Source of the DNA: Octopus vulgaris
Lineage: Eukaryota
DNA: 64,000 bases
Assembly (NCBI GenBank): GCA_951406725.2
Contig: OX597815.1
Span: 178,064,001 to 178,128,000 of the forward strand
Reading direction: 5' to 3'
Below, piece after piece: positions 13,981-61,190 of this stretch (positions are counted from its first letter, which is position 1; every line of letters starts with the position of its first letter). The translations under genes were made by a program, and so were the position numbers. Under the pieces are notes generated by a model that was not told the origin of the DNA, ran no database searches, and saw nothing but the letters and a program-made list of their open reading frames with translations.

Positions 13981-14007
13981 ATGTTTTATGTTGCTATAAA
14001 ATTGTTT

Positions 14008-14147
14008 ACATTATTTACATTTGACGGATAATTGTCCTCATCTTGTTGTTGTTAACACAACGTTTCGTCTGATATACCCTCCAACCTTCATAAGGTGTCT
14101 TGAGGAAATTTCAAACGTGGGGTCTAATTCAGAAGTTATTTTCGATG

Positions 14148-14186
<39 letters not shown>

Positions 14187-14360
14187 TCACTGCTTGGAAT
14201 CGAACTCGGAATCTCGGAGTTAGTAGTCCGCGTTCTTAACCGCTACGCCATATGGAGGGTATATCAACCGAAACGTTGTGTTAAAAACTAACAGGATGAA
14301 GACAAATATCCGTCAAATGTAAATAATGTACATAATTCCTCATCTCTTAAATACAGAACC
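14008..14360 (-). mobile_element. Penelope-pLTR-like module: tRNA-like A/B boxes + (AAT)n + minimal hammerhead + tail on the minus strand (14008-14252), fused to an inverted partial copy (14253-14360)
   Basis: A box TGGCGTAGCGG (14240-14250, minus), B box GAGTTCGATTCC (14196-14207, minus), (TTA)n 14151-14182, hammerhead-like 14054-14100. TSD ATAAAATTGTTT at 13996-14007 and 14361-14372. Confidence 0.75.
14054..14100 (-). ncRNA. Minimal hammerhead ribozyme motif (core-mutated copy)
   Basis: Minus strand AGACAC-CTtATGA-A-GGTTG/loop/CAGAC-GAAACGTT-GTGTT. Stem I ACAC/GTGT intact, core G5 mutated. Confidence 0.6.
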
Positions 14361-15149
14361 ATAAAATTGTTTGCCGGTGAGTTAATTTAATAATCCAATT
14401 TTTTGTTGTTTTTTTTTCATCTTGTATAAATATCCTCAGTTTGTTGCAAGAAGTTCTGTAGTATTGACTGGATGATATCTTACAGTAGAATGTTGTTGGA
14501 TGACAAAGGGATCGTTTAATATATGTTATTAGTTCGTTTTAGTTGAATCAATTGGTTCCAATTGTGCTTACCTTTTATAACAAGAGGTCAAAGGTTTGTT
14601 AGCCTAAATCACTTTACCCACTATTTTAGCTTACGTGTTACTATTTCCGGTGCCTCCGCGCAAAAAAGTTGCTGGAGTGCATATGATCAGCAATAAAGAC
14701 TGCAAACTATTGAAGATTTCCTGTAAGATTATTACTTAAACTGAGCAATGAATCGGCAGTATCTTTAGAGTATAAGAAAATAATTATTTGCAGATTTTGT
14801 TCCGGTGCTTTATTTCTGAGTTCCAATGGCGCCGAGCTCAGCTTCGCTTTTCATTTCTACCAAATCAATAAAATACATTATTATTTCATGTAATTTACTA
14901 AGGTCCTCCCCTCAGAATTCCTGCACTTAAATCTAAAATAGAATTAATTACTAATGTACTTTTTAATTGCTATTATTAATGTTAGAACGATGGGCCAAAT
15001 AAACTGCAATATTTAGTTGAATTCCGGCCTGAAATCTTGTCGCAGTCAACGTACTTCTCATGCAGAATCGATAAAATATAGAGCGAATCAACAATTGGAA
15101 TCAAAGTAATCAAATATTATGAATGCAAAACTATGATTCTTTGTCCCTA

Positions 15150-16150
15150 TGATTTAAACCGATCGATATTGCTGTTTGTTTTCTTGGACATTGTATATAT
15201 AATGAAGCGGTTATCGTCCAGAAAGAATATTTCTTTGTGCGCAAGCAATTATTTTCCGCAAGATTTTCTTTTTAAATGAAAACCAACCGCCCATTATGTT
15301 CAGTGTCGATGTTTGTTTCCTTTGTAATTGTCTAAGACATAGACATGGTAAGAGTTTACCGAATTCTTTTGGAGCAGCATTGTAGTTCCCGAGTTTAGAA
15401 TTGTCAATTGATTTTTTTTAAACAATTGTTACTTAAGCTACAGTCACATATCAGGAGTTCTATCTACCATGATACGGTTTGTTCAGATTTTGATTTTCCA
15501 TAAGTTTGAAATCTTATTTTCCATTACACGTACGTCAACTTTTCAACAATATACTGTAGCGTTTATAAGACTTTAGCAGCAGCAGCAGTATTACGCCATA
15601 CTTGTGTCGGCTGTATTTTGTTTATAAATGTCTTCTGCTTTTTCATTGGTCTATTTTGCTGTCCATACTAATCTTCGTGAAAAGCTTCTTTTCAATGGAG
15701 AAAGGTTCTCAGAATCAGGTTTCCGGCAGTTATAAAAACCCTGATTTTTGGGAAATTGTTCAGTGACACTCGATTGGCCACATGGGACCTCGTCACTTAT
15801 TCTGGCAATGCCATTTTACATGGTTCATCCTTCCTGACCTTATGTCATACTGTTTCCAACCCTTTTAATGTAGTTTGAAAAACTATCTACGAAACATTTT
15901 CCCCGTTGTCATTCTTACGACAGATTCCTTTTAAAACATGTTCTTCTTCATTATAATATGTTCTGCAATTTTCCCTAACACTATTATGTTGTGATCAATT
16001 CATTTTATATATTTTTTACTTTCTGTAAATAAATTATTGGTAATAAATCCAGTCCGTCTTCTCTTCATATTATCTGTACGTATGCTTACCGTATGATCAT
16101 AAGGAAAAGGAACTAAAGATTTATTTCCATGCACCTTTATGAAGATACAC
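15150..16150 (-). mobile_element. Possible decayed hAT transposase remnant
   Basis: IMVDRTPD (near 15475-15450) resembles hAT SIxxDxTPD. Weak RGH/GNF-like region upstream. Confidence 0.35.
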
Positions 16151-16334: not shown

Positions 16335-16536
16335 AAGGCGGCGAGCTGGCAGAAACGTTAGAACGCCGGGCAAAATGCGCAGCCGTATTTCGTCTGCCGT
16401 TACGTTCTGAGTTCAAATTCCGCCGAAGGTCGACTTTGCCTTTCATCATTTCGGTGTCGATAAATTAAGTACCAGTTACGCACTGGGGTCAATGTAATCA
16501 ACTTAATTTGTTTGTTCCCTCTGTAGTAAAGAAATT
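16335..16536 (+). mobile_element. Meta/MESC-domain-like SINE, monomer
   Basis: ggcggcgagctggcaga head, gagttcaaattcc B box, gactttgcctttcatc..gtcgataaa..agtacc domain. TSD GGTAT(T/C)TTCAACA at 16322-16334 and 16537-16549. Confidence 0.9.
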
Positions 16537-23314: not shown

Positions 23315-23757
23315 AAAGGCGGCGAGCTGGCAGAAACGTTAGCACGCCGGGCGAAATCCTTAGCGGTATTTCGTCTGCCGCTACGTTCTAAGTTCAAATT
23401 CCGCCGAGGTCGACTTTGCCTTTCATCCTTTCGGCGTCGATTAAATAAGTACCAGTTACGCACTGGGGTCGATATAATCGATTTAATCCGTTTGTCTGTC
23501 CTTGTTTGTCCTCTCTGTGTTTAGCCCCTTGTGGGTAGTAAAGAAATAGGTATTTCGTCTGCCGCTACGTTCTGAGTTCAAATTCCGCCGAGGTCGACTC
23601 TGCCTCTCATTCTTTCGGTGTCGATTAAATAAGTACCAGTTACGCACTGGGATCGATATTATAGAATTAATCCGTTTGTCTCTCCTTGTTTGTCCTCTCT
23701 GTGAGTAGTAAAAAATAGGTATTTCGTCTGCCCCTTGTCGGCAGTAAAGAAATATAT
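23315..23757 (+). mobile_element. Meta-like SINE multimer (head + 2 bodies + deleted third unit)
   Basis: Body restarts at GGTATTTCGTCTGCC (23549, 23718). Single TSD ACTTTAACACG at 23304-23314 and 23758-23768. Confidence 0.9.
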
Positions 23758-44513: not shown

Positions 44514-44725
44514 AGAGATGTGGAATTATGTATATTATTTACATCATTTACATTTGGCCGAGTACAGATATGAATAGAATATGAGAAACGGTATTAAGGA
44601 AGGATAGGAAAATATTAGATTTATAAGCCCTAAAATTCACTCCATAATTACCCACAGTGTAGTGGTTAAGAGCGTGGGCTACTAAACCCAAGATTTCGAG
44701 TTCGATTCCAAGCAGTACCCGTAAA

Positions 44726-44825: not shown

Positions 44826-47800
44826 AAAAGATACACCGGAGACGGAAAAATACACCGGGGACGGGAAGATACACCAGGGGCGAAAGATACACCGGGGACG
44901 TTTAAGATGTTTGAACGATAAAACAGTGCTCCGAAATCTATCCACAAATATCGAAAACAGAGACATCGTATGGAGCCAAAAATTTACTGACAAAGGATTG
45001 AACTATATCCGAGTAAGTAATACTCATTGAAATTTATTACTATTTTCGAAACGAAATTACGTATTTTAACTCGATATCATCTCCACCTCCAACACAACAC
45101 ATGTAAACATGCGTGAAATATTACGACCCATCAACACCAGATCATCACCGACCCCAAACACCATGTACAAAAAACTACGAAGAAATTAAATAACACCGAT
45201 ATTATTCAACCCAAGAATAACAATCGGGAAGTACGTACTTTAAACTTACAGCACAAAATGTACGGAAAACTACACGTGCAAAACAATGTGACAACAGAAA
45301 TGAACGGACCGGTACCCTACGAAAATGACGACCGTCAAAATAATGGGCCGGACGTTGTTCCTCATGTCCCGGAAATAAAACCCAAAAGACATAAATGGAC
45401 ACGTGAGGAATACATTTCTATCCTACACGCTCACTTTACAGCAGTGCTCTACCCAAAGAAGGAAAACACAACAACACAAACGTATAAAATATGGAAGGAA
45501 AATAACATAAATATAGACTTGGATACAGCAATGAACCCTAATAAACTAGCTAACGTACGAAGATACATTCTCAACGCAAAAAAATATCAGAAATAGAAAT
45601 AGAACATCTAAAAGAAAAAATACATCAGGAAAATGTAGATAGAAGCCACACAACAATGCCCAATAATATAAACACTGAAACAGTAAAACACGAAGACAAA
45701 CGTAACATTCCCAATAAACACGATGTAAACAAAAAACGACAAACCCAGACCGTAAGGATGCATAATAATACACGACAAACAGCAAGCCAAAACACGACAA
45801 ACAAACATACAAATAAGAAAGAAAGTGACACAAATCTAAAACCTGGAAACAACGAAGGGGAGCCTAATGATTATGATACTATAAAAAGTAGAATAATCAA
45901 AGAACTAAAAACCACAGAGCTCAAAATGAACCACCGACCATACCTCCCAAAAATCAAAATAGACGAAACAACAATACCAATTATAAATAGCATAAACCTA
46001 GCCGTCACGGAACTAATAGCCACTGAAACAAAAAGCGATATCACTGAGCTAAATGACTTAGTATACGCAGCATCCACTGCAGCCACAGAAGAAGCTGGAT
46101 ATTAACTCAAACCCGCCCAAACAGGAGTACCACCACCCAAACAAAACCTGTGGATAAATAACATCCAAAACAAAATACAAAAATGAGAAAAGATCTATCG
46201 ATTCTTAATGAAATCAGTAGGCAATCAACGCTACTGAGCAACAAAAAGAAAACAAAAATACTCCGCAGATACAACATCACAAAAAAAGATTTACCTGAGA
46301 TAAAAGAAAAGCTAAAGCAAGATATCCTTGCCAAAGCACAGAGGATCCGCCGGTACGAGAAACGCCAGCGCTTCTTTGAACAAAACAAAAAGTTCAGCTC
46401 CAACCCCAAAAAGTTCTACCAAGAACTTGGCAAAAATAAAATAGAAATCACTGCAGCACCAACGGCAGAAGAAGTGGAAGAATTCTGGAGAAAAATATGG
46501 TCGGCGAACGAACAACCAAAAAAAAAGGAGTATCAAAACAAACTCAGCATCTGAGCAACTTTGGACCCCCATAACAACTGAAGAGATCACCCAGACACTG
46601 CAAAGACTAAGCAACTGGAAGGCACCTGGGCATGACAAGATCCCCAACTTCTGGTTGAAATATCTATTGCACAAAAAGCTGGCTGAAAATTTTAACAACA
46701 TACTGGCAGAGCCAGAGAAAATGCCTTAATGGCTCACGAAGGGGAAAACCATCTTAATTCCCAAATCAAATGAGACAGCAAAACCAGAAAACTACAGACC
46801 AATAACCTGTCTCCCTACAATGTACAAGGCATTTACTGCAGTGATATCGCAAAGGTTGAACAACCTGTTTCCAGAAGAGCAGAAAGGATGCCGCAAAGGC
46901 TCATATGGCTGTAAAGATCAACTAATGATTAATAAAGCCATAGCTGAAGACAGCCACAGAAAGAAGAAAGGCCTCAGTATGGCCTAGATCGACTACAAAA
47001 AGGCGTTTGATAGCATCCCCCACACATGGATCTTCGAAACACTAGCCATTAACAAAGTAGCACCGACAATTATAAAATTCATAGGACACTCTATGAATAA
47101 ATGGCAAACAGTGCTACAGCTCCAAACAAAAGAGGGACTCATGAAAACCAAAGCTATCCCCATTAGAAGAGGAATATTCCAGGGAGACACGCTCTCTCCA
47201 CTCCTTTTCTGCTTGGCACTGTCACCTCTATCTGATATGCTAAATAGTACTGGATGCGGATATAAATGTTACGGCAAAACGATCAGCCACCTTTTATATA
47301 TGGATGACCTAAAACTATACGCTGCAAATGACAAACAGCTGGAAACACTATTAAAGACACTGCTCATGGATTTACCAAAGAAATAGATATGAAATTTGGA
47401 TTAGAAAAATGCGCCAAAGTAACCATGAAAAGAGGAAAACTAGTTAAGAGTAACAACATCACACTAGATAAAACCAATGAAATAAAAGAATTAGACCAAA
47501 GCCAAACTTACAAATACTTAGGAATCCATGAACTAAATAAGACACAACACACACAAATGAAATAGAAAGTAAAAAAAAGAATATTATAGACGAGTTAGAT
47601 CAATACTAAAAACAGAGCTCTATGCTAAAAACAAGATAATAGGTATTAACACTTTAGCTGTCCCAGTTATAAGTTACAGCTACAATATCCTTAACTCGAC
47701 ACTAAATGAACTGACCACAATAGAAAGGAAAACAAGAAAAATAATGACAGGATCTAGGATGCATCACCCAAAATATGACATAGAAAGACTATATATACAA

Positions 47801-48989
47801 CGTATAGAAGGTGGTAGAGGCCTTATATAGCTGGAAAACTACTATAAAATAACCACCATAGGACTGCAAAAATATCTACTTCAGAAGGAAGGAAAACTGA
47901 TACAAGTAGCGGCAAAACACGAGCAAAACAAAAAACTGTTCTCAGTATTTAAGGAAGCTGACAAATACAAACAAGAAGTCATACCACCTAATAAATATGA
48001 AGAAGAAGAAGAAGAAGAAGAAGAAGAAGAAGAAGAAGAAGAAGAAGAAGAAGATGAAGAAACAACAAAAGCTATAAAACAAATGAAATCCAAACAAAAA
48101 CTAGAACAGCAAAGAACCATGATAAAACGATGGCAAGAAAAGCCCCTTCATGGTAAATACTGGACAAAACTAAATGCAAAAGAAATAGACAAAGAAAAAT
48201 CCCAGCAATGGTTGAGAAGCTCAGGACTCAAAGCAGAGACAGAGGGATTTTTAATTGCAGCACAAGACCAAAGCCTCCCCACCAGAAATTACCAAAAACA
48301 TGTAATGAAAAGAAATATAACAAGTAAATGCAGAATATGTGGAGATGGACAAGAAACAATAAATCATATTATCTCTGGCTGCCCAGTTCTGGCTAAGAAG
48401 GAATATATTCACAGACATGACAGAGTTGGAACCTACATACACTGGAAGCTATGCCAACATTATGGAATAATAACAGAAAAAAGATGGTATAGGCACACAC
48501 CAGAAAAGGTCTCAGAAAACGAGAAAGCAACCATACTCTGGGATATGCCGATACGCACAGATAGAGAAATTAAGGCCAACAGACCAGATATAGTTGTCAG
48601 AGATCATGAAGAAAAAAATGCTTTCTAATTGATGTATCAATACCGGCAGATGACAACGTGTCTCTAAAAGAAATGGAGAAACTTTCAAAATACAAAGACC
48701 TGGAAATAGAGGTAACCAGAATGTGGAATCTAAAAACAGAAACAATTCCTATCGTAGTAGGTGCATTAGGCGTGATTAAAAATATTCAGATAAAAACATA
48801 ACAAAAACACCAGGACTTACAAACACATATTACATACAGAAAATTGCATTACTAGGCACTGCACACATCCTACCAGAACACTTTCCATACAATAACCATC
48901 AGAGCATCACAACAAATCACAGCACATACCCAAGGCACACAGAGCTGTGCTCGGTAGTGAAGTGAAAGCACACTATAAAAATAAAACTA

Positions 48990-48992
<3 letters not shown>
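44826..48992 (+). mobile_element. Near full-length R4/Dong-clade non-LTR retrotransposon (RT + CCHC knuckle + restriction-like endonuclease), disabled
   Basis: Motifs in order across frames: KRHKWTREE, VEEFWRKIW, NWKAPGHDKIPNFWLK, NYRPITCLP, EEQKGCRKGSYGCKDQL, IDYKKAFDSIPH, RGIFQGDTLSPLLF, HLLYMDDLKLY, CRICGDGQETINHIISGC, RHD, RPDIVV, IPIVVGALG. Flanked by (AAT)n on both sides. Confidence 0.95.
45258..48895 (+). pseudogene. Disrupted single ORF of the R4/Dong-like element (RT-RLE polyprotein)
   Basis: ORF pieces 45258-45596, 45656-46105, 46183-46554, 47093-47386 and 48083-48628 are joined by frameshifts and in-frame stops (e.g. near 46727 and 46985). Terminal TAA at 48893-48895. True start uncertain. 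Confidence 0.9.
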
Positions 48993-49053
<61 letters not shown>

Positions 49054-49065
49054 TTAATAATAATA

Positions 49066-49300
49066 TCAGACAAATACATAACAAAAAATACCAATTCAGA
49101 CAAATACATAACAAAAACACCAGGTCTTACAAACACATATAACATACAGAAAATTGCACTACTAGGCACTGCACACATCCTACGCAGAACACTTTCCATA
49201 CAATAACCATCAGAGCATCACAACAAATCACAGCACCTACCCAAGGCGCACAGTGCTGCGCTCGGTAGTGAAGTGAAAGCACACTATAAAAATAAAACTA

Positions 49301-49303
<3 letters not shown>
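49066..49303 (+). mobile_element. Second, 5'-truncated copy of the same Dong-like 3' end
   Basis: Repeats about 48785-48992 with several differences, ends ...AAAACTACTG and is followed by a new (AAT)n tract. Confidence 0.9.
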
Positions 49304-49382
<79 letters not shown>

Positions 49383-49386
<4 letters not shown>

Positions 49387-49547
49387 CAACAACAACAACA
49401 ATAACAACATTGAAAAATACCTTAGGAATGAGAACCCAGGTTCGGAATTTCCCCAAGACACCTGATGAAGGCTGGAGGGTATCTCAGCCGAAACGTGTTA
49501 ACAACAAGCAAGATGAGGACAAATATACGTCAAGTGTAAATAATGTA
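49383..49547 (+). mobile_element. 3' half of the tRNA-(AAT)n-hammerhead module
   Basis: Matches the reverse complement of 14008-14150 (aacat-gaaaa...gaaatttcc-caagacac...gatgaggacaa...cgtcaa-tgtaaataatgta). Confidence 0.8.
49456..49499 (+). ncRNA. Minimal type I hammerhead ribozyme motif (damaged copy)
   Basis: AGACAC-CTGATGA(49462-68)-A-GGCTG/loop/CAGCC-GAAACG(49490-95)-TGTT. Lacks 3 nt relative to GAAACGTTGTGTT in the two 14-kb copies. Confidence 0.7.
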
Positions 49548-50285: not shown

Positions 50286-50885
50286 GGGCGACGAGCTGGC
50301 AGAATCGTTAACACGCCGGGCGAAATGCTTAACGGTATTTCGTCTGCCGTTACGTTGTGAGTTCAAATTCCGCCGAGGTCGACTTTGCCTTTCATCCTTT
50401 CGGGGTCGATAAATTAAGTACCAGTTAAGCACTGGGGTCGATATAATCGACTTAATACCTATGTCTGTCCATGTTTGTCCCCTCTATGTTTAGCCCCTTG
50501 TGGGTAATAAAGAAATATGTATTTCGTCTGCCGTTACGTTCTGAGTTCAAATTCCGCCGAGGTCGACTTTGCCCTTCATCCTTTCGGTGTCGATTAAATA
50601 AGTACCAGTTACGCACTGGGGTCGATATAATTGACTTAATCCGTTTCTCTGTCCTTGTATGTCCTCTCTGTGTTTAGCCACTCGTGGGTAGTAAAGAAAT
50701 AGGTATTTTGTCTGCCGTTACTGTCTGAGTTCAAACTCTGCCGAGGTCGACCTGCCTTTCATCCTTTCGGTGTCGATTAAATAAGTACCAGTATCGCACT
50801 AGGGTCGATGTAATGCATTGAAAATCTTTGTCTGTCCTTGTTTGTCCCCTTTATGTTTAGCCCCCTGTGGGCAATAAAGAAATAA
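50286..50885 (+). mobile_element. Meta-like SINE multimer (head + 3 bodies)
   Basis: Units of about 183 bp restart at about 50519 and 50703 after AAAGAAATA. Confidence 0.9.
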
Positions 50886-58888: not shown

Positions 58889-60808
58889 GGCATCTTTCGG
58901 TCTCGAGAGACTGTGGATCTGCGCCCAAAGAAATCGTGTCAGCTGCTGTTGGTGGTGCAGCGTCTGCGGTGGCTGTAGAGGCCCACACAGGCGTAGAAGT
59001 CACGCACATACGGACCGCATTTGAAGGCGCTCTATGCTGGCCTTATTGGGTTTTTTTTCTTCTGTCGTCCGCGCTTTTCTTTTGCAGCGAGTTCCTTCAT
59101 TTCCTTTCAGAGTCTCCAGCGTGGGCCATCATTTGTGAACTCCTCCCATCTCAGGACGGCAAGATTTATTGACCAAATATCTCTCTTGCAGACGTCCTTG
59201 AAACGAAGGTGTAGTCGTCCTCGCGCTCTTGTGCCGGTGACCATTTCCCGACAGAGGAAGTGTTTGGGGATCCTTCCGTCCAGCATGCGAGGTACATGAC
59301 CGAGCCAACGCAAACGACGCTGCTGTAGTCGGGTGAGTATTCTGGGTATGTTGGTGCGGTTGAGGACTTCGGTGTTGGTGATGCGGTCGGTCCACTTGCT
59401 ATCCAAGATGCGTCTCAAATTACGAAGGTAGAAGACGCTGAGATGCCCCTCCTATCTGGAGTAGAGGCTCCACATCTCACTGCCGTGGAATACCGTACTA
59501 AGGACGCACGCCTTATAGACAGCAATCTTGGTGCTTGCGGTCAGTTTTCTGTTTACCCAGACTCTCTTTGTGAGTCTGGTAAATGTTGAGGATGCTTGTC
59601 CAGTTCACCTACTGATCTCAGGGTCCAGGTTGAGGTCGTCAGAAATGGTGGAGCCGAGGTAGGAGAATTAATGGACAACCTCCAGCTTGTAGTTGTTGAT
59701 GGTGATGGTAAGGAGTGCTAACCACTTTGGCTCAGTACGTTGGCTTCTTCAGACTGATAGTCATGCTGAATTCCTGACAAACCTTTGAGAATTTGTCTAC
59801 ATGTGCTGCATTTGCTCCTCGGAGTGGGCTGTCAGTGCTGCATCGTCCGCATCCTGGATTTTGATTTTCAGCCTCGACAGACTAAACAGTTTACTGTCTG
59901 ATCTGGTGAGAAGGTAAACACCATCAGTTGATGTCTCAAATGCGTATTTCAGCATAATTGTGAAGAAGAACAGGGTGGGGGCAAGCATACACCCTTGCTT
60001 CACGACGCTACATATGATGAATGTCTGAAAAGAAGAGCCAACAAATTGAACGACGCCTTTCATATCGGTGTGAAGCGACTGGACAATCCTGAGGAGTCTC
60101 GCAGGACAGCCAATCTTGGCAAGGATTTTGAACAGGCCGTCCCTATTGACTAGATCTTCTCTTCTAGCCTTTGGGATTTCGATGAAGATGATGAAGATTG
60201 CTTACCTTTGCTCTCGGCACTTCTTCTGTAGCTCTCGAAGTGAGATCATTCGATGGAGGAGCGTTCTGATCTGAAACCTTCTCAGCAATTTTCTGTTGTA
60301 TGTGGGCAAAGATCTTCCCGACGATACTTAACAGCGAAAATGCCTCGGTAAGTATTCCAGCTGCGTTTGTCTCCTTTGTTCTTATACACGATTATACTGT
60401 TGCAGTATCTCATATCTTGCGGTGCTCTTCCCTCCTCACAGCTGGTGGGATGCCGTTCAAACCTGGCGCTTTTCCAGTAGGCAAGCCGTCAATGGCGCTG
60501 CTCAGTTCTTCAAGAGTTGGCAGTGTATCCAGCTCCTCCTCCATGACAGGTAGGTGCTCTCCGGTGTCTAGCGCTATCTCAAATGTTGTTTTCCTTGGCG
60601 TTGAGTTCGGAATAATGTTCTACCCATCTATCCAGCTGCTCCCTTTTGCCTTTGATGACTTCTCCTGTTCTGGATTTGCGTGGAGCTATCTTTCTCTGGG
60701 TTAGGTCGATCGCTTTCTTGACATCCTGATACATTCCGCGTATGTTTCCCATGTCAAACTAGTGGTTACATAGTTACATAGTTGTAACCAGTAGTCATTG
60801 GCCACGCC
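58889..60808 (-). mobile_element. 5'-truncated RTE (BovB-like) LINE, disabled
   Basis: ANDYWLQLC, GNIRGMY, RWVEHYSEL, VKQGCMLAPTLF, ADDAAL, RRLRWLGHVPRMLDGRIPK, RFKDVCKRD, GLYSHRRRC. 3' end GTCTCTCGAGACCGAAAGATGCC + (CTA)n. Confidence 0.93.
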
Positions 60809-60920: not shown

Positions 60921-61190
60921 TGGCTTAGTGGTTAAGGTGTTGTAGTCAGGATTTCGAGACAGTGGGTTCGATCCCGAGCCCGAGTGTTGCGTTGTGTTCT
61001 TATGTAAAGCACTTCATGTCACGTTGCGATCGTTTCGACTTCTGACATGTGGCACTCAGTTGCACCTGTACACGTAAAGTCGATCAGATGGAGGGGGTGA
61101 GCTTACGTCTACACAAACATTCGATCACTTTAAACAAATCATCTGTGTGGTTGATTTGTAAGAAATTGCCGAACGCTCATACATCATCTC
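60921..61190 (+). mobile_element. tRNA-derived SINE (CORE-like body, tail 4)
   Basis: TGGCTTAGTGG, GGTTCGATCCC, degenerate CORE-like motif, distinct 3' part. Confidence 0.7.

Follow-up and report, generated by a model that had tools for sequence, protein, structure and literature searches.

At positions 14008-14360 of the 64-kb stretch analysed here (the window) lies an old, damaged copy of a very abundant short mobile element. Read on the minus strand from 14252 to 14008, the unit carries the parts in the order that an earlier note had described, namely A and B boxes, an (AAT)n tract, a linker, a hammerhead and a 3' part, which the note called a tail; an inverted partial copy is indeed fused to its 5' end, on the plus strand at 14253-14360, and the expected 12-bp TSD, ATAAAATTGTTT, abuts both ends of the whole (13996-14007 and 14361-14372; Table 1). 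Of 2652 pairs of 30-nt windows drawn at random with the spacing of the TSD, 5 have twelve letters in common. At the 5' end of the unit the two boxes, beginning at 14250 and 14205, stand at tRNA spacing; they were called with patterns that we take to be those of tRNA-promoter boxes, and the A box letter at 14242 is improved by the family majority. ARAGORN made no tRNA call on the head, and an Rfam search of it, short stretches included, gave no tRNA match, the hits being microsatellite or hairpin artefacts; the Rfam hammerhead covariance models, run against the damaged copies only, gave no match at E up to 5-10. Because ARAGORN and Rfam recognise neither part, the tRNA-like and ribozyme labels rest on motif and fold. 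That the sense strand has no TTTT run was given no weight, since 2247 of 5000 shuffles and 936 of 4323 random windows lack one too.

Table 1. Features of the unit at 14008-14360 (copy 1) and of its split second copy (copy 2), in window coordinates.
Feature	Positions	Strand	Remarks
TSD, left copy, 12 bp	13996..14007	.	ATAAAATTGTTT
pLTR-like body, 3' part	14008..14053	-	direct copy ends without tail
Minimal type I hammerhead, damaged	14054..14099	-	defined as in PMC4209133 (excerpt)
Linker, 51 nt	14100..14150	-	common to copy 2
(AAT)n tract	14151..14182	-	10.7 units
tRNA-like head	14183..14252	-	starts 2 nt upstream of A box; A box from 14250, B box from 14205
Head-to-head junction palindrome, 8 bp	14248..14255	.	
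Inverted 5'-truncated body copy	14253..14330	+	hammerhead 3' half onward
30-nt tail	14331..14360	+	confined to inverted copy; loose contig ends at 14336, 14353, 14359
TSD, right copy, 12 bp	14361..14372	.	ATAAAATTGTTT
Copy 2, inverted 3'-end piece	44514..44556	-	with most of tail
Copy 2, tRNA-like head	44657..44721	+	cut at A box; B box 44700
Decayed R2-group non-LTR retrotransposon	44827..49303	+	inside copy 2 (AAT)n, foreign to module; RT, zinc knuckle, PD..D motif
Copy 2, (AAT)n/(AAC)n, linker, hammerhead, 3' part	49304..49547	+	hammerhead 49457-49499; without tail

The same module recurs, split and again with an inverted tail piece at its 5' end, between 44514 and 49547, where head, body and inverted piece are all found as the earlier note had it. 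The copy 2 head is identical to that of copy 1 at 53 of 66 positions and the body (49402-49547) in 123 of 149 columns; no TSD was found around copy 2, the best candidate measuring 6 bp. A 100-nt filler (44557-44656) with no clear match elsewhere in the window separates the inverted tail piece from the head. The 4.5-kb insert in copy 2 gives an RVT_1 match (E 1.8e-15) together with zf-RVT matches and a PD..D motif, its closest solved relatives, those of the RT at 46730-47383 among them, are R2 proteins (E 1.8e-12 and E 0.0015), and the whole starts after a microsatellite and ends in (AAT)n. Judged by its sequence the insert is an R2-group LINE, probably of the Dong/R4 type. Dong targets TAA repeats. 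The split in copy 2 is a later LINE insertion with no Penelope ORF involved, and the insert therefore stands outside the module. This LINE was also considered as the mobilising partner and rejected, its own 3' end being different and ending in (AAT)n. Its 5' end bears a 19-bp tandem repeat, and its 3' end is duplicated in tandem over ~311 bp (48784-49376), with (AAT)n closing each part.

The window holds further repeats. Another short family is present as 184-bp tandem units at two places (23365-23703 and 50334-50884) and as a single unit at a third (16340-16500); a second type of tRNA-like head, likewise with A and B boxes, lies on the plus strand at 60921-60975, directly after a (TA)n tract; and a further reverse transcriptase fragment occupies 59800-60201 on the minus strand (RVT_1, E 5e-4).

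Head, (AAT)n, a shared linker and ribozyme follow in the same order in both copies of the window, and in both the head sits inside a bracket formed by an inverted and a direct arm, with a single TSD enclosing everything in copy 1. The starts of the two copies fall at the head's 5' edge and differ by about 5 nt at most, an inverted 5'-truncated terminal repeat lies by the 5' end of each, and the direct copies end at the same place (14008 and 49547). The tail is carried on one end: it adds to the inverted arm of copy 1 30 nt that the direct copy lacks, and most of it is also present in the inverted piece of copy 2. Insertions of Penelope-type elements (PLEs) are described with an inverted pLTR, a 31-bp tail, TSDs of 8-10 bp and junction palindromes (PMC3846280; papers are cited here and throughout for excerpts of their text), and the same layout is given in PMC8557442. 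The 30-40-nt PLE tail has been explained as the gap between two internal starts of reverse transcription (PMC11167929). The Penelope link that the earlier note had drawn is thus supported, and this optional tail of ~30 nt on one end is a signature it had missed. At the 3' end, a 9-nt unit (14317-14336) occurs in variable number, twice in copy 1 and three times in the inverted piece of copy 2, and position 14331 has an alternative letter in 15-32% of family depth.

The putative ribozyme has the layout of a minimal hammerhead, with a 5-bp stem I, an extra base after A9, a stem II of 5-6 bp, no stem III loop and the palindrome AACGUU; the predicted cut falls after GUU, between 14059 and 14058. 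As previously proposed, its three copies are each damaged differently: copy 1 has G5 changed to U and two changes in stem II, the inverted copy misses its 5' half, and copy 2 has lost 3 nt at the cleavage site. A descriptor scan found no intact hammerhead in the 64-kb window. The intact consensus that had been predicted from these remnants is borne out by the family, in whose majority reading the three positions damaged in copy 1 are all restored in 4/4 runs: G5 makes up 95-99% of depth, the two stem II pairs 81-98.5% and 96-99.6%, and the core CUGANGA ... GAAA ... UH is intact in the majority of every run. Within the core and its closing pairs the only variable sites are CpG sites (G12, C11.1 and 15.2, at 8.5-21%), a pattern that looks like neutral decay of dead copies.

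Folding of the consensus, which the earlier note had put forward as a check, gives pair probabilities of 0.91-0.99 for stem I and 0.97-1.0 for stem II in the isolated majority 53-mer, at -13.6 kcal/mol as against -6.3 kcal/mol for copy 1; when the whole 245-nt unit is folded, stem I falls to 0.08-0.09 and stem II to about 0.8. By folding z-score (-1.6 to +0.7) the damaged copies do not stand out, and two palindromes can pair in a predicted duplex of -5.7 kcal/mol. Metazoan PLE minimal hammerheads are characterised by the extra base after A9, G10.1-C11.1, a palindromic 15.2-16.2 and a short stem I (PMC4209133), and all four of these traits, which can be read from a single sequence, are present or fitting here; stem II, at 5-6 bp, is shorter than the 7-8 bp given for schistosome PLEs in the same paper. 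In vitro, single minimal PLE motifs did not cleave and dimers did so little (PMC4209133), and a PLE ribozyme was reported to cut only with protein, in a study that found no RNA ends at the cut (PMC11167929). The motif modelled here would cut at most as a dimer or with protein help. The short self-cleaved RNAs suggested by the earlier note find no support: the monomer lacks stem III, and the cut, predicted 194 nt from the start of copy 1 with 51 nt left to the first priming site, would separate promoter from priming site. Moreover, none of the 24 loose contig ends listed (909 more exist) lies at the cut site, nor do these show there any position at which many molecules begin or end.

Public runs give a view of the family at large. 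Of 24 runs listed under five organism labels, all of them contigs, 20 hold part of the 64-kb stretch, and four with three organism labels were aligned at 80% likeness: X2 (19,763 contigs), X6 (17,932) and X14 (17,006), guessed to be DNA of organisms A, C and E, and X16 (1,384), guessed to be RNA of A. Flank depth is 50-56. Expressed as a multiple of it, summed depth is about 14,000-16,000 for the B box, 70,000-87,000 for the ribozyme and 164,000-178,000 close to the 3' end; such ratios are biased by local mismatches and are no copy number, and we read from them a family size of the order of 10^4-10^5. Ribozyme parts exceed heads about 5:1 by this measure, so most ribozyme copies may lack a head, the head standing at ~15,000 times the flank and the ribozyme at 70,000-87,000. 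From bin 14080-14099 to bin 14100-14119, across the edge of stem I, all three DNA runs lose 4- to 11-fold in depth; many copies may start at this edge of the ribozyme, or the step may arise artificially from a diverged linker beside a masked repeat; the tract 14139-14189 was masked in the contig alignment, so that linkage of head and body is not spanned. Head-less stumps, derived from the SINE or from its partner itself, may make up most copies.

Piles of loose ends whose long flanks are unlike the unit stand at 14336, 14353, 14359 and 14001/14007 (again among the 24 listed, with 909 more), in agreement with the two priming sites and the 30-40-nt tail of PMC11167929. Nine of the 15 joints listed (87 more exist) are head-to-head inversions with other breakpoints, their sides mostly short (21-42 letters); the rest are five strand changes and one short deletion, and none of the 15 is a head-to-tail (tandem) joint. 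One X2 contig of 110 nt, with 19 other letters and no gaps, spans the head-to-inverted-arm junction at 14207-14316 and hints at another locus that shares this junction. Contigs of X6 and X14 join the left flank to 22-23 nt of the element, fewer than the 31 letters needed as a bridge, which is a hint that the insertion is shared with those organisms; no empty insertion site was seen in the aligned contigs. Two motif patterns were absent from viral, metagenome and prokaryote collections alike (0 matches in each), which is no surprise for a repeat of animals. Translations spanning head and linker had no relatives in a protein search, a result silent on linkage.

The copies in the window are dead and old. 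The inverted arm and the direct copy of copy 1 are identical in 70 of 80 columns, and since the arms thus differ in 10/80 and each shows 5 differences from the majority, the insertion is old; provided that the rate of 0.0036 per million years quoted for octopus in PMC13282606 holds here, its age would be some 13-15 million years.

The earlier note had left two options, a Penelope terminal repeat with a built-in promoter or a SINE mobilised by Penelope machinery. It is the SINE that fits better and the autonomous terminal repeat that gives way, because both copies end at the 5' edge of the head and no GIY-YIG was found. No Penelope RT or GIY-YIG ORF, neighbours the same note had thought worth seeking, adjoins the unit: none of the 278 ORF pieces scanned across the 64-kb window (at least 55 aa, low-complexity pieces left out) matched either, and the LINE in copy 2 is of the R2 group. 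Starts at the head's 5' edge match what is expected if the RNA begins there. We therefore favour, with fair though by no means full confidence, a tRNA-headed SINE with a Penelope pLTR as its 3' part, inserted by Penelope RT/endonuclease from uncleaved RNA. Because a tRNA-type promoter is joined to the hammerhead-ribozyme end of a Penelope retrotransposon, the element probably spread by borrowing Penelope enzymes, instead of the LINE enzymes usual for short elements. By its architecture it would behave as a PLE insertion unit that brings a tRNA-type promoter along, being neither an autonomous PLE nor, by definition, a retrozyme.

Such an element could have arisen when the 5'-truncated pLTR of an endonuclease-bearing PLE landed in (AAT)n behind a tRNA-derived head, creating a master. 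Pol III would start at the head and read through the ribozyme to the 3' end; PLE protein would bind the pLTR part in trans and nick AT-rich DNA, reverse transcription would prime at one of two sites separated by about 30 nt, a second priming event would produce the inverted truncated arm, and repair would leave the TSD. The PLE enzyme prefers ATT, and uncleaved RNA is the dominant PLE insertion substrate (PMC11167929). Here too the template would be uncleaved RNA, for a full copy includes the cut site and continues beyond it. The ribozyme would have arrived with the pLTR, and its cut would destroy the template because promoter and priming site are separated. A bolder version, possible but doubtful, is that of a Pol III SINE class partnered by a PLE and not by a LINE, with a head in ~10^4 copies in this group of animals and a hammerhead kept as a protein grip, whose cutting throttles the element's own spread; such cutting would occur only in dimers or on protein and would part promoter from priming site.

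It is improbable that the unit is instead the 3' terminal repeat of an autonomous PLE with a tRNA-derived promoter in its pLTR, the copies being ordinary 5' truncations. All insertion signatures are PLE-like, depth climbs toward the 3' end as it would under 5' truncation, and an ATG in the ribozyme core resembles the Poseidon ORF start of Anolis at stem II (PMC11167929); the frame opened by that ATG, however, closes after about 24-25 codons, and that 2/2 copies should end at the head's 5' edge would be rare under random truncation of a 3-kb element. The 278 ORF pieces without GIY-YIG or PLE RT argue in the same direction, as does, weakly, the failure of the sense-frame peptide to match any of the longer proteins searched. 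We hold it for quite improbable that two families have been conflated, one a short tRNA SINE with (AAT)n as its end, the other made up of pLTR stumps that have no head and a liking for AAT, with linked units as chimeras or passengers and a head that is not a working promoter. The 5:1 excess of ribozyme parts and the depth drop at the stem I edge would suit such a pair, as would the preference of the PLE endonuclease for ATT (PMC11167929) and the finding that pLTRs can transport foreign DNA, so that unrelated DNA can sit between them (PMC3846280). Both copies nevertheless have the same head-to-linker junction and the same linker start, the head lies inward of both TSD and inverted arm, there is no AAT after the 3' end, and the depth step perhaps stems from a diverged linker beside the masked repeat.

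Highly improbable, finally, is a mobile form of the Sm-alpha or retrozyme type, in which the ribozyme would cut tandem transcripts into short linear or circular RNAs. In Sm-alpha a hammerhead comes after a Pol III promoter, as the review PMC6765202 describes; pLTRs are the source of retrozymes (10.64898/2026.07.22.740005); and the family majority has an intact core and palindromes that could pair, at the predicted -5.7 kcal/mol. Against this, both copies in the window are dispersed monomers that run through the cut site, with no same-strand hammerheads found in tandem; head-to-tail joints are lacking among the 15 listed (87 more exist), and the contigs show neither an end pile nor a listed loose end at the cut, which counts for little. 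The poor in vitro cleavage of single minimal hammerheads and their dimers (PMC4209133) and the low stem I probability predicted for the whole 245-nt unit point the same way.

SINEs are usually described as LINE riders. If the favoured reading of a PLE-riding, tRNA-headed SINE is true, it would add a third host system beside LINE-dependent SINEs and the LTR-dependent TRIMp3, and some of the Penelope and unclassified SINE content of such genomes would be accounted for. The unit, 280 nt long, would moreover serve as a naturally minimal substrate for studies of the hammerhead's role in the Penelope cycle; because it has its own promoter and no ribozyme-overlapping ORF that needs upkeep, ribozyme mutations could be tested without touching coding. 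Our search of a largely open-access literature collection found no tRNA-headed SINE with a Penelope pLTR end or Penelope insertion signatures. A family this abundant very likely sits in automatic repeat libraries under some label, and octopus repeat papers do report Penelope, Dong-R4 and many unclassified SINE families. No hammerhead was found in the excerpted text and supplement of PMC13282606 or in the excerpted main text of PMC8967140; octopus OR1/OR2 are cited as CORE SINEs, and 235 hammerheads have been counted in the giant squid (PMC4758252, PMC4824008, PMC6962438).

Among known systems, Penelope/Poseidon-type insertions share with the unit a minimal hammerhead in the terminal repeat, an inverted 5'-truncated arm, a one-ended tail of ~30 nt, a short TSD in AT-rich DNA and a junction palindrome (PMC3846280, PMC11167929, PMC8557442); the unit differs in lacking an RT/GIY-YIG ORF, a tRNA-like head and (AAT)n replacing the element body. 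The combination of a Pol III promoter with a hammerhead is already known from Sm-alpha. Like the unit, the schistosome elements Sm-alpha and Sj-alpha are short and non-coding and have a type I hammerhead downstream of an apparent Pol III promoter (PMC6765202, PMC8490949), but Sm-alpha is often tandem and freed from multimers by its ribozyme (PMC6765202), whereas the unit occurs as dispersed monomers with PLE signatures and no stem III; the canonical hammerheads of schistosomes and the minimal ones of PLEs form separate sets in PMC4209133. Non-LTR retrozymes and other non-autonomous PLE derivatives resemble the unit in being non-coding, pLTR-related and thought to depend on PLEs in trans (PMC7761336, PMC7229834, 10.64898/2026.07.22.740005), MRC1 and its kin being such derivatives (PMC8557442). 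Retrozymes, in contrast, consist of tandem units with at least two hammerheads and form circles, and a tRNA head is not described for them in the excerpts of these same three sources. With tRNA-derived SINEs (SINE2, including octopus OK, OR1 and OR2, which we know by citation alone) the unit shares an A/B-box head, shortness, a very high copy number and a TSD (PMC4758252, PMC4824008), yet the SINE2 partners are LINEs, while the 3' part here is a hammerhead-bearing pLTR without poly(A). TRIMp3 elements (Helenus, Ajax and Cassandra) offer the parallel of a small-RNA promoter grafted onto a non-LINE terminal repeat, as in the unit; unlike it, they depend on LTR retrotransposons, with PBS, PPT and a 4-5-bp TSD, and carry no ribozyme as far as the excerpt describes them (PMC10886601).
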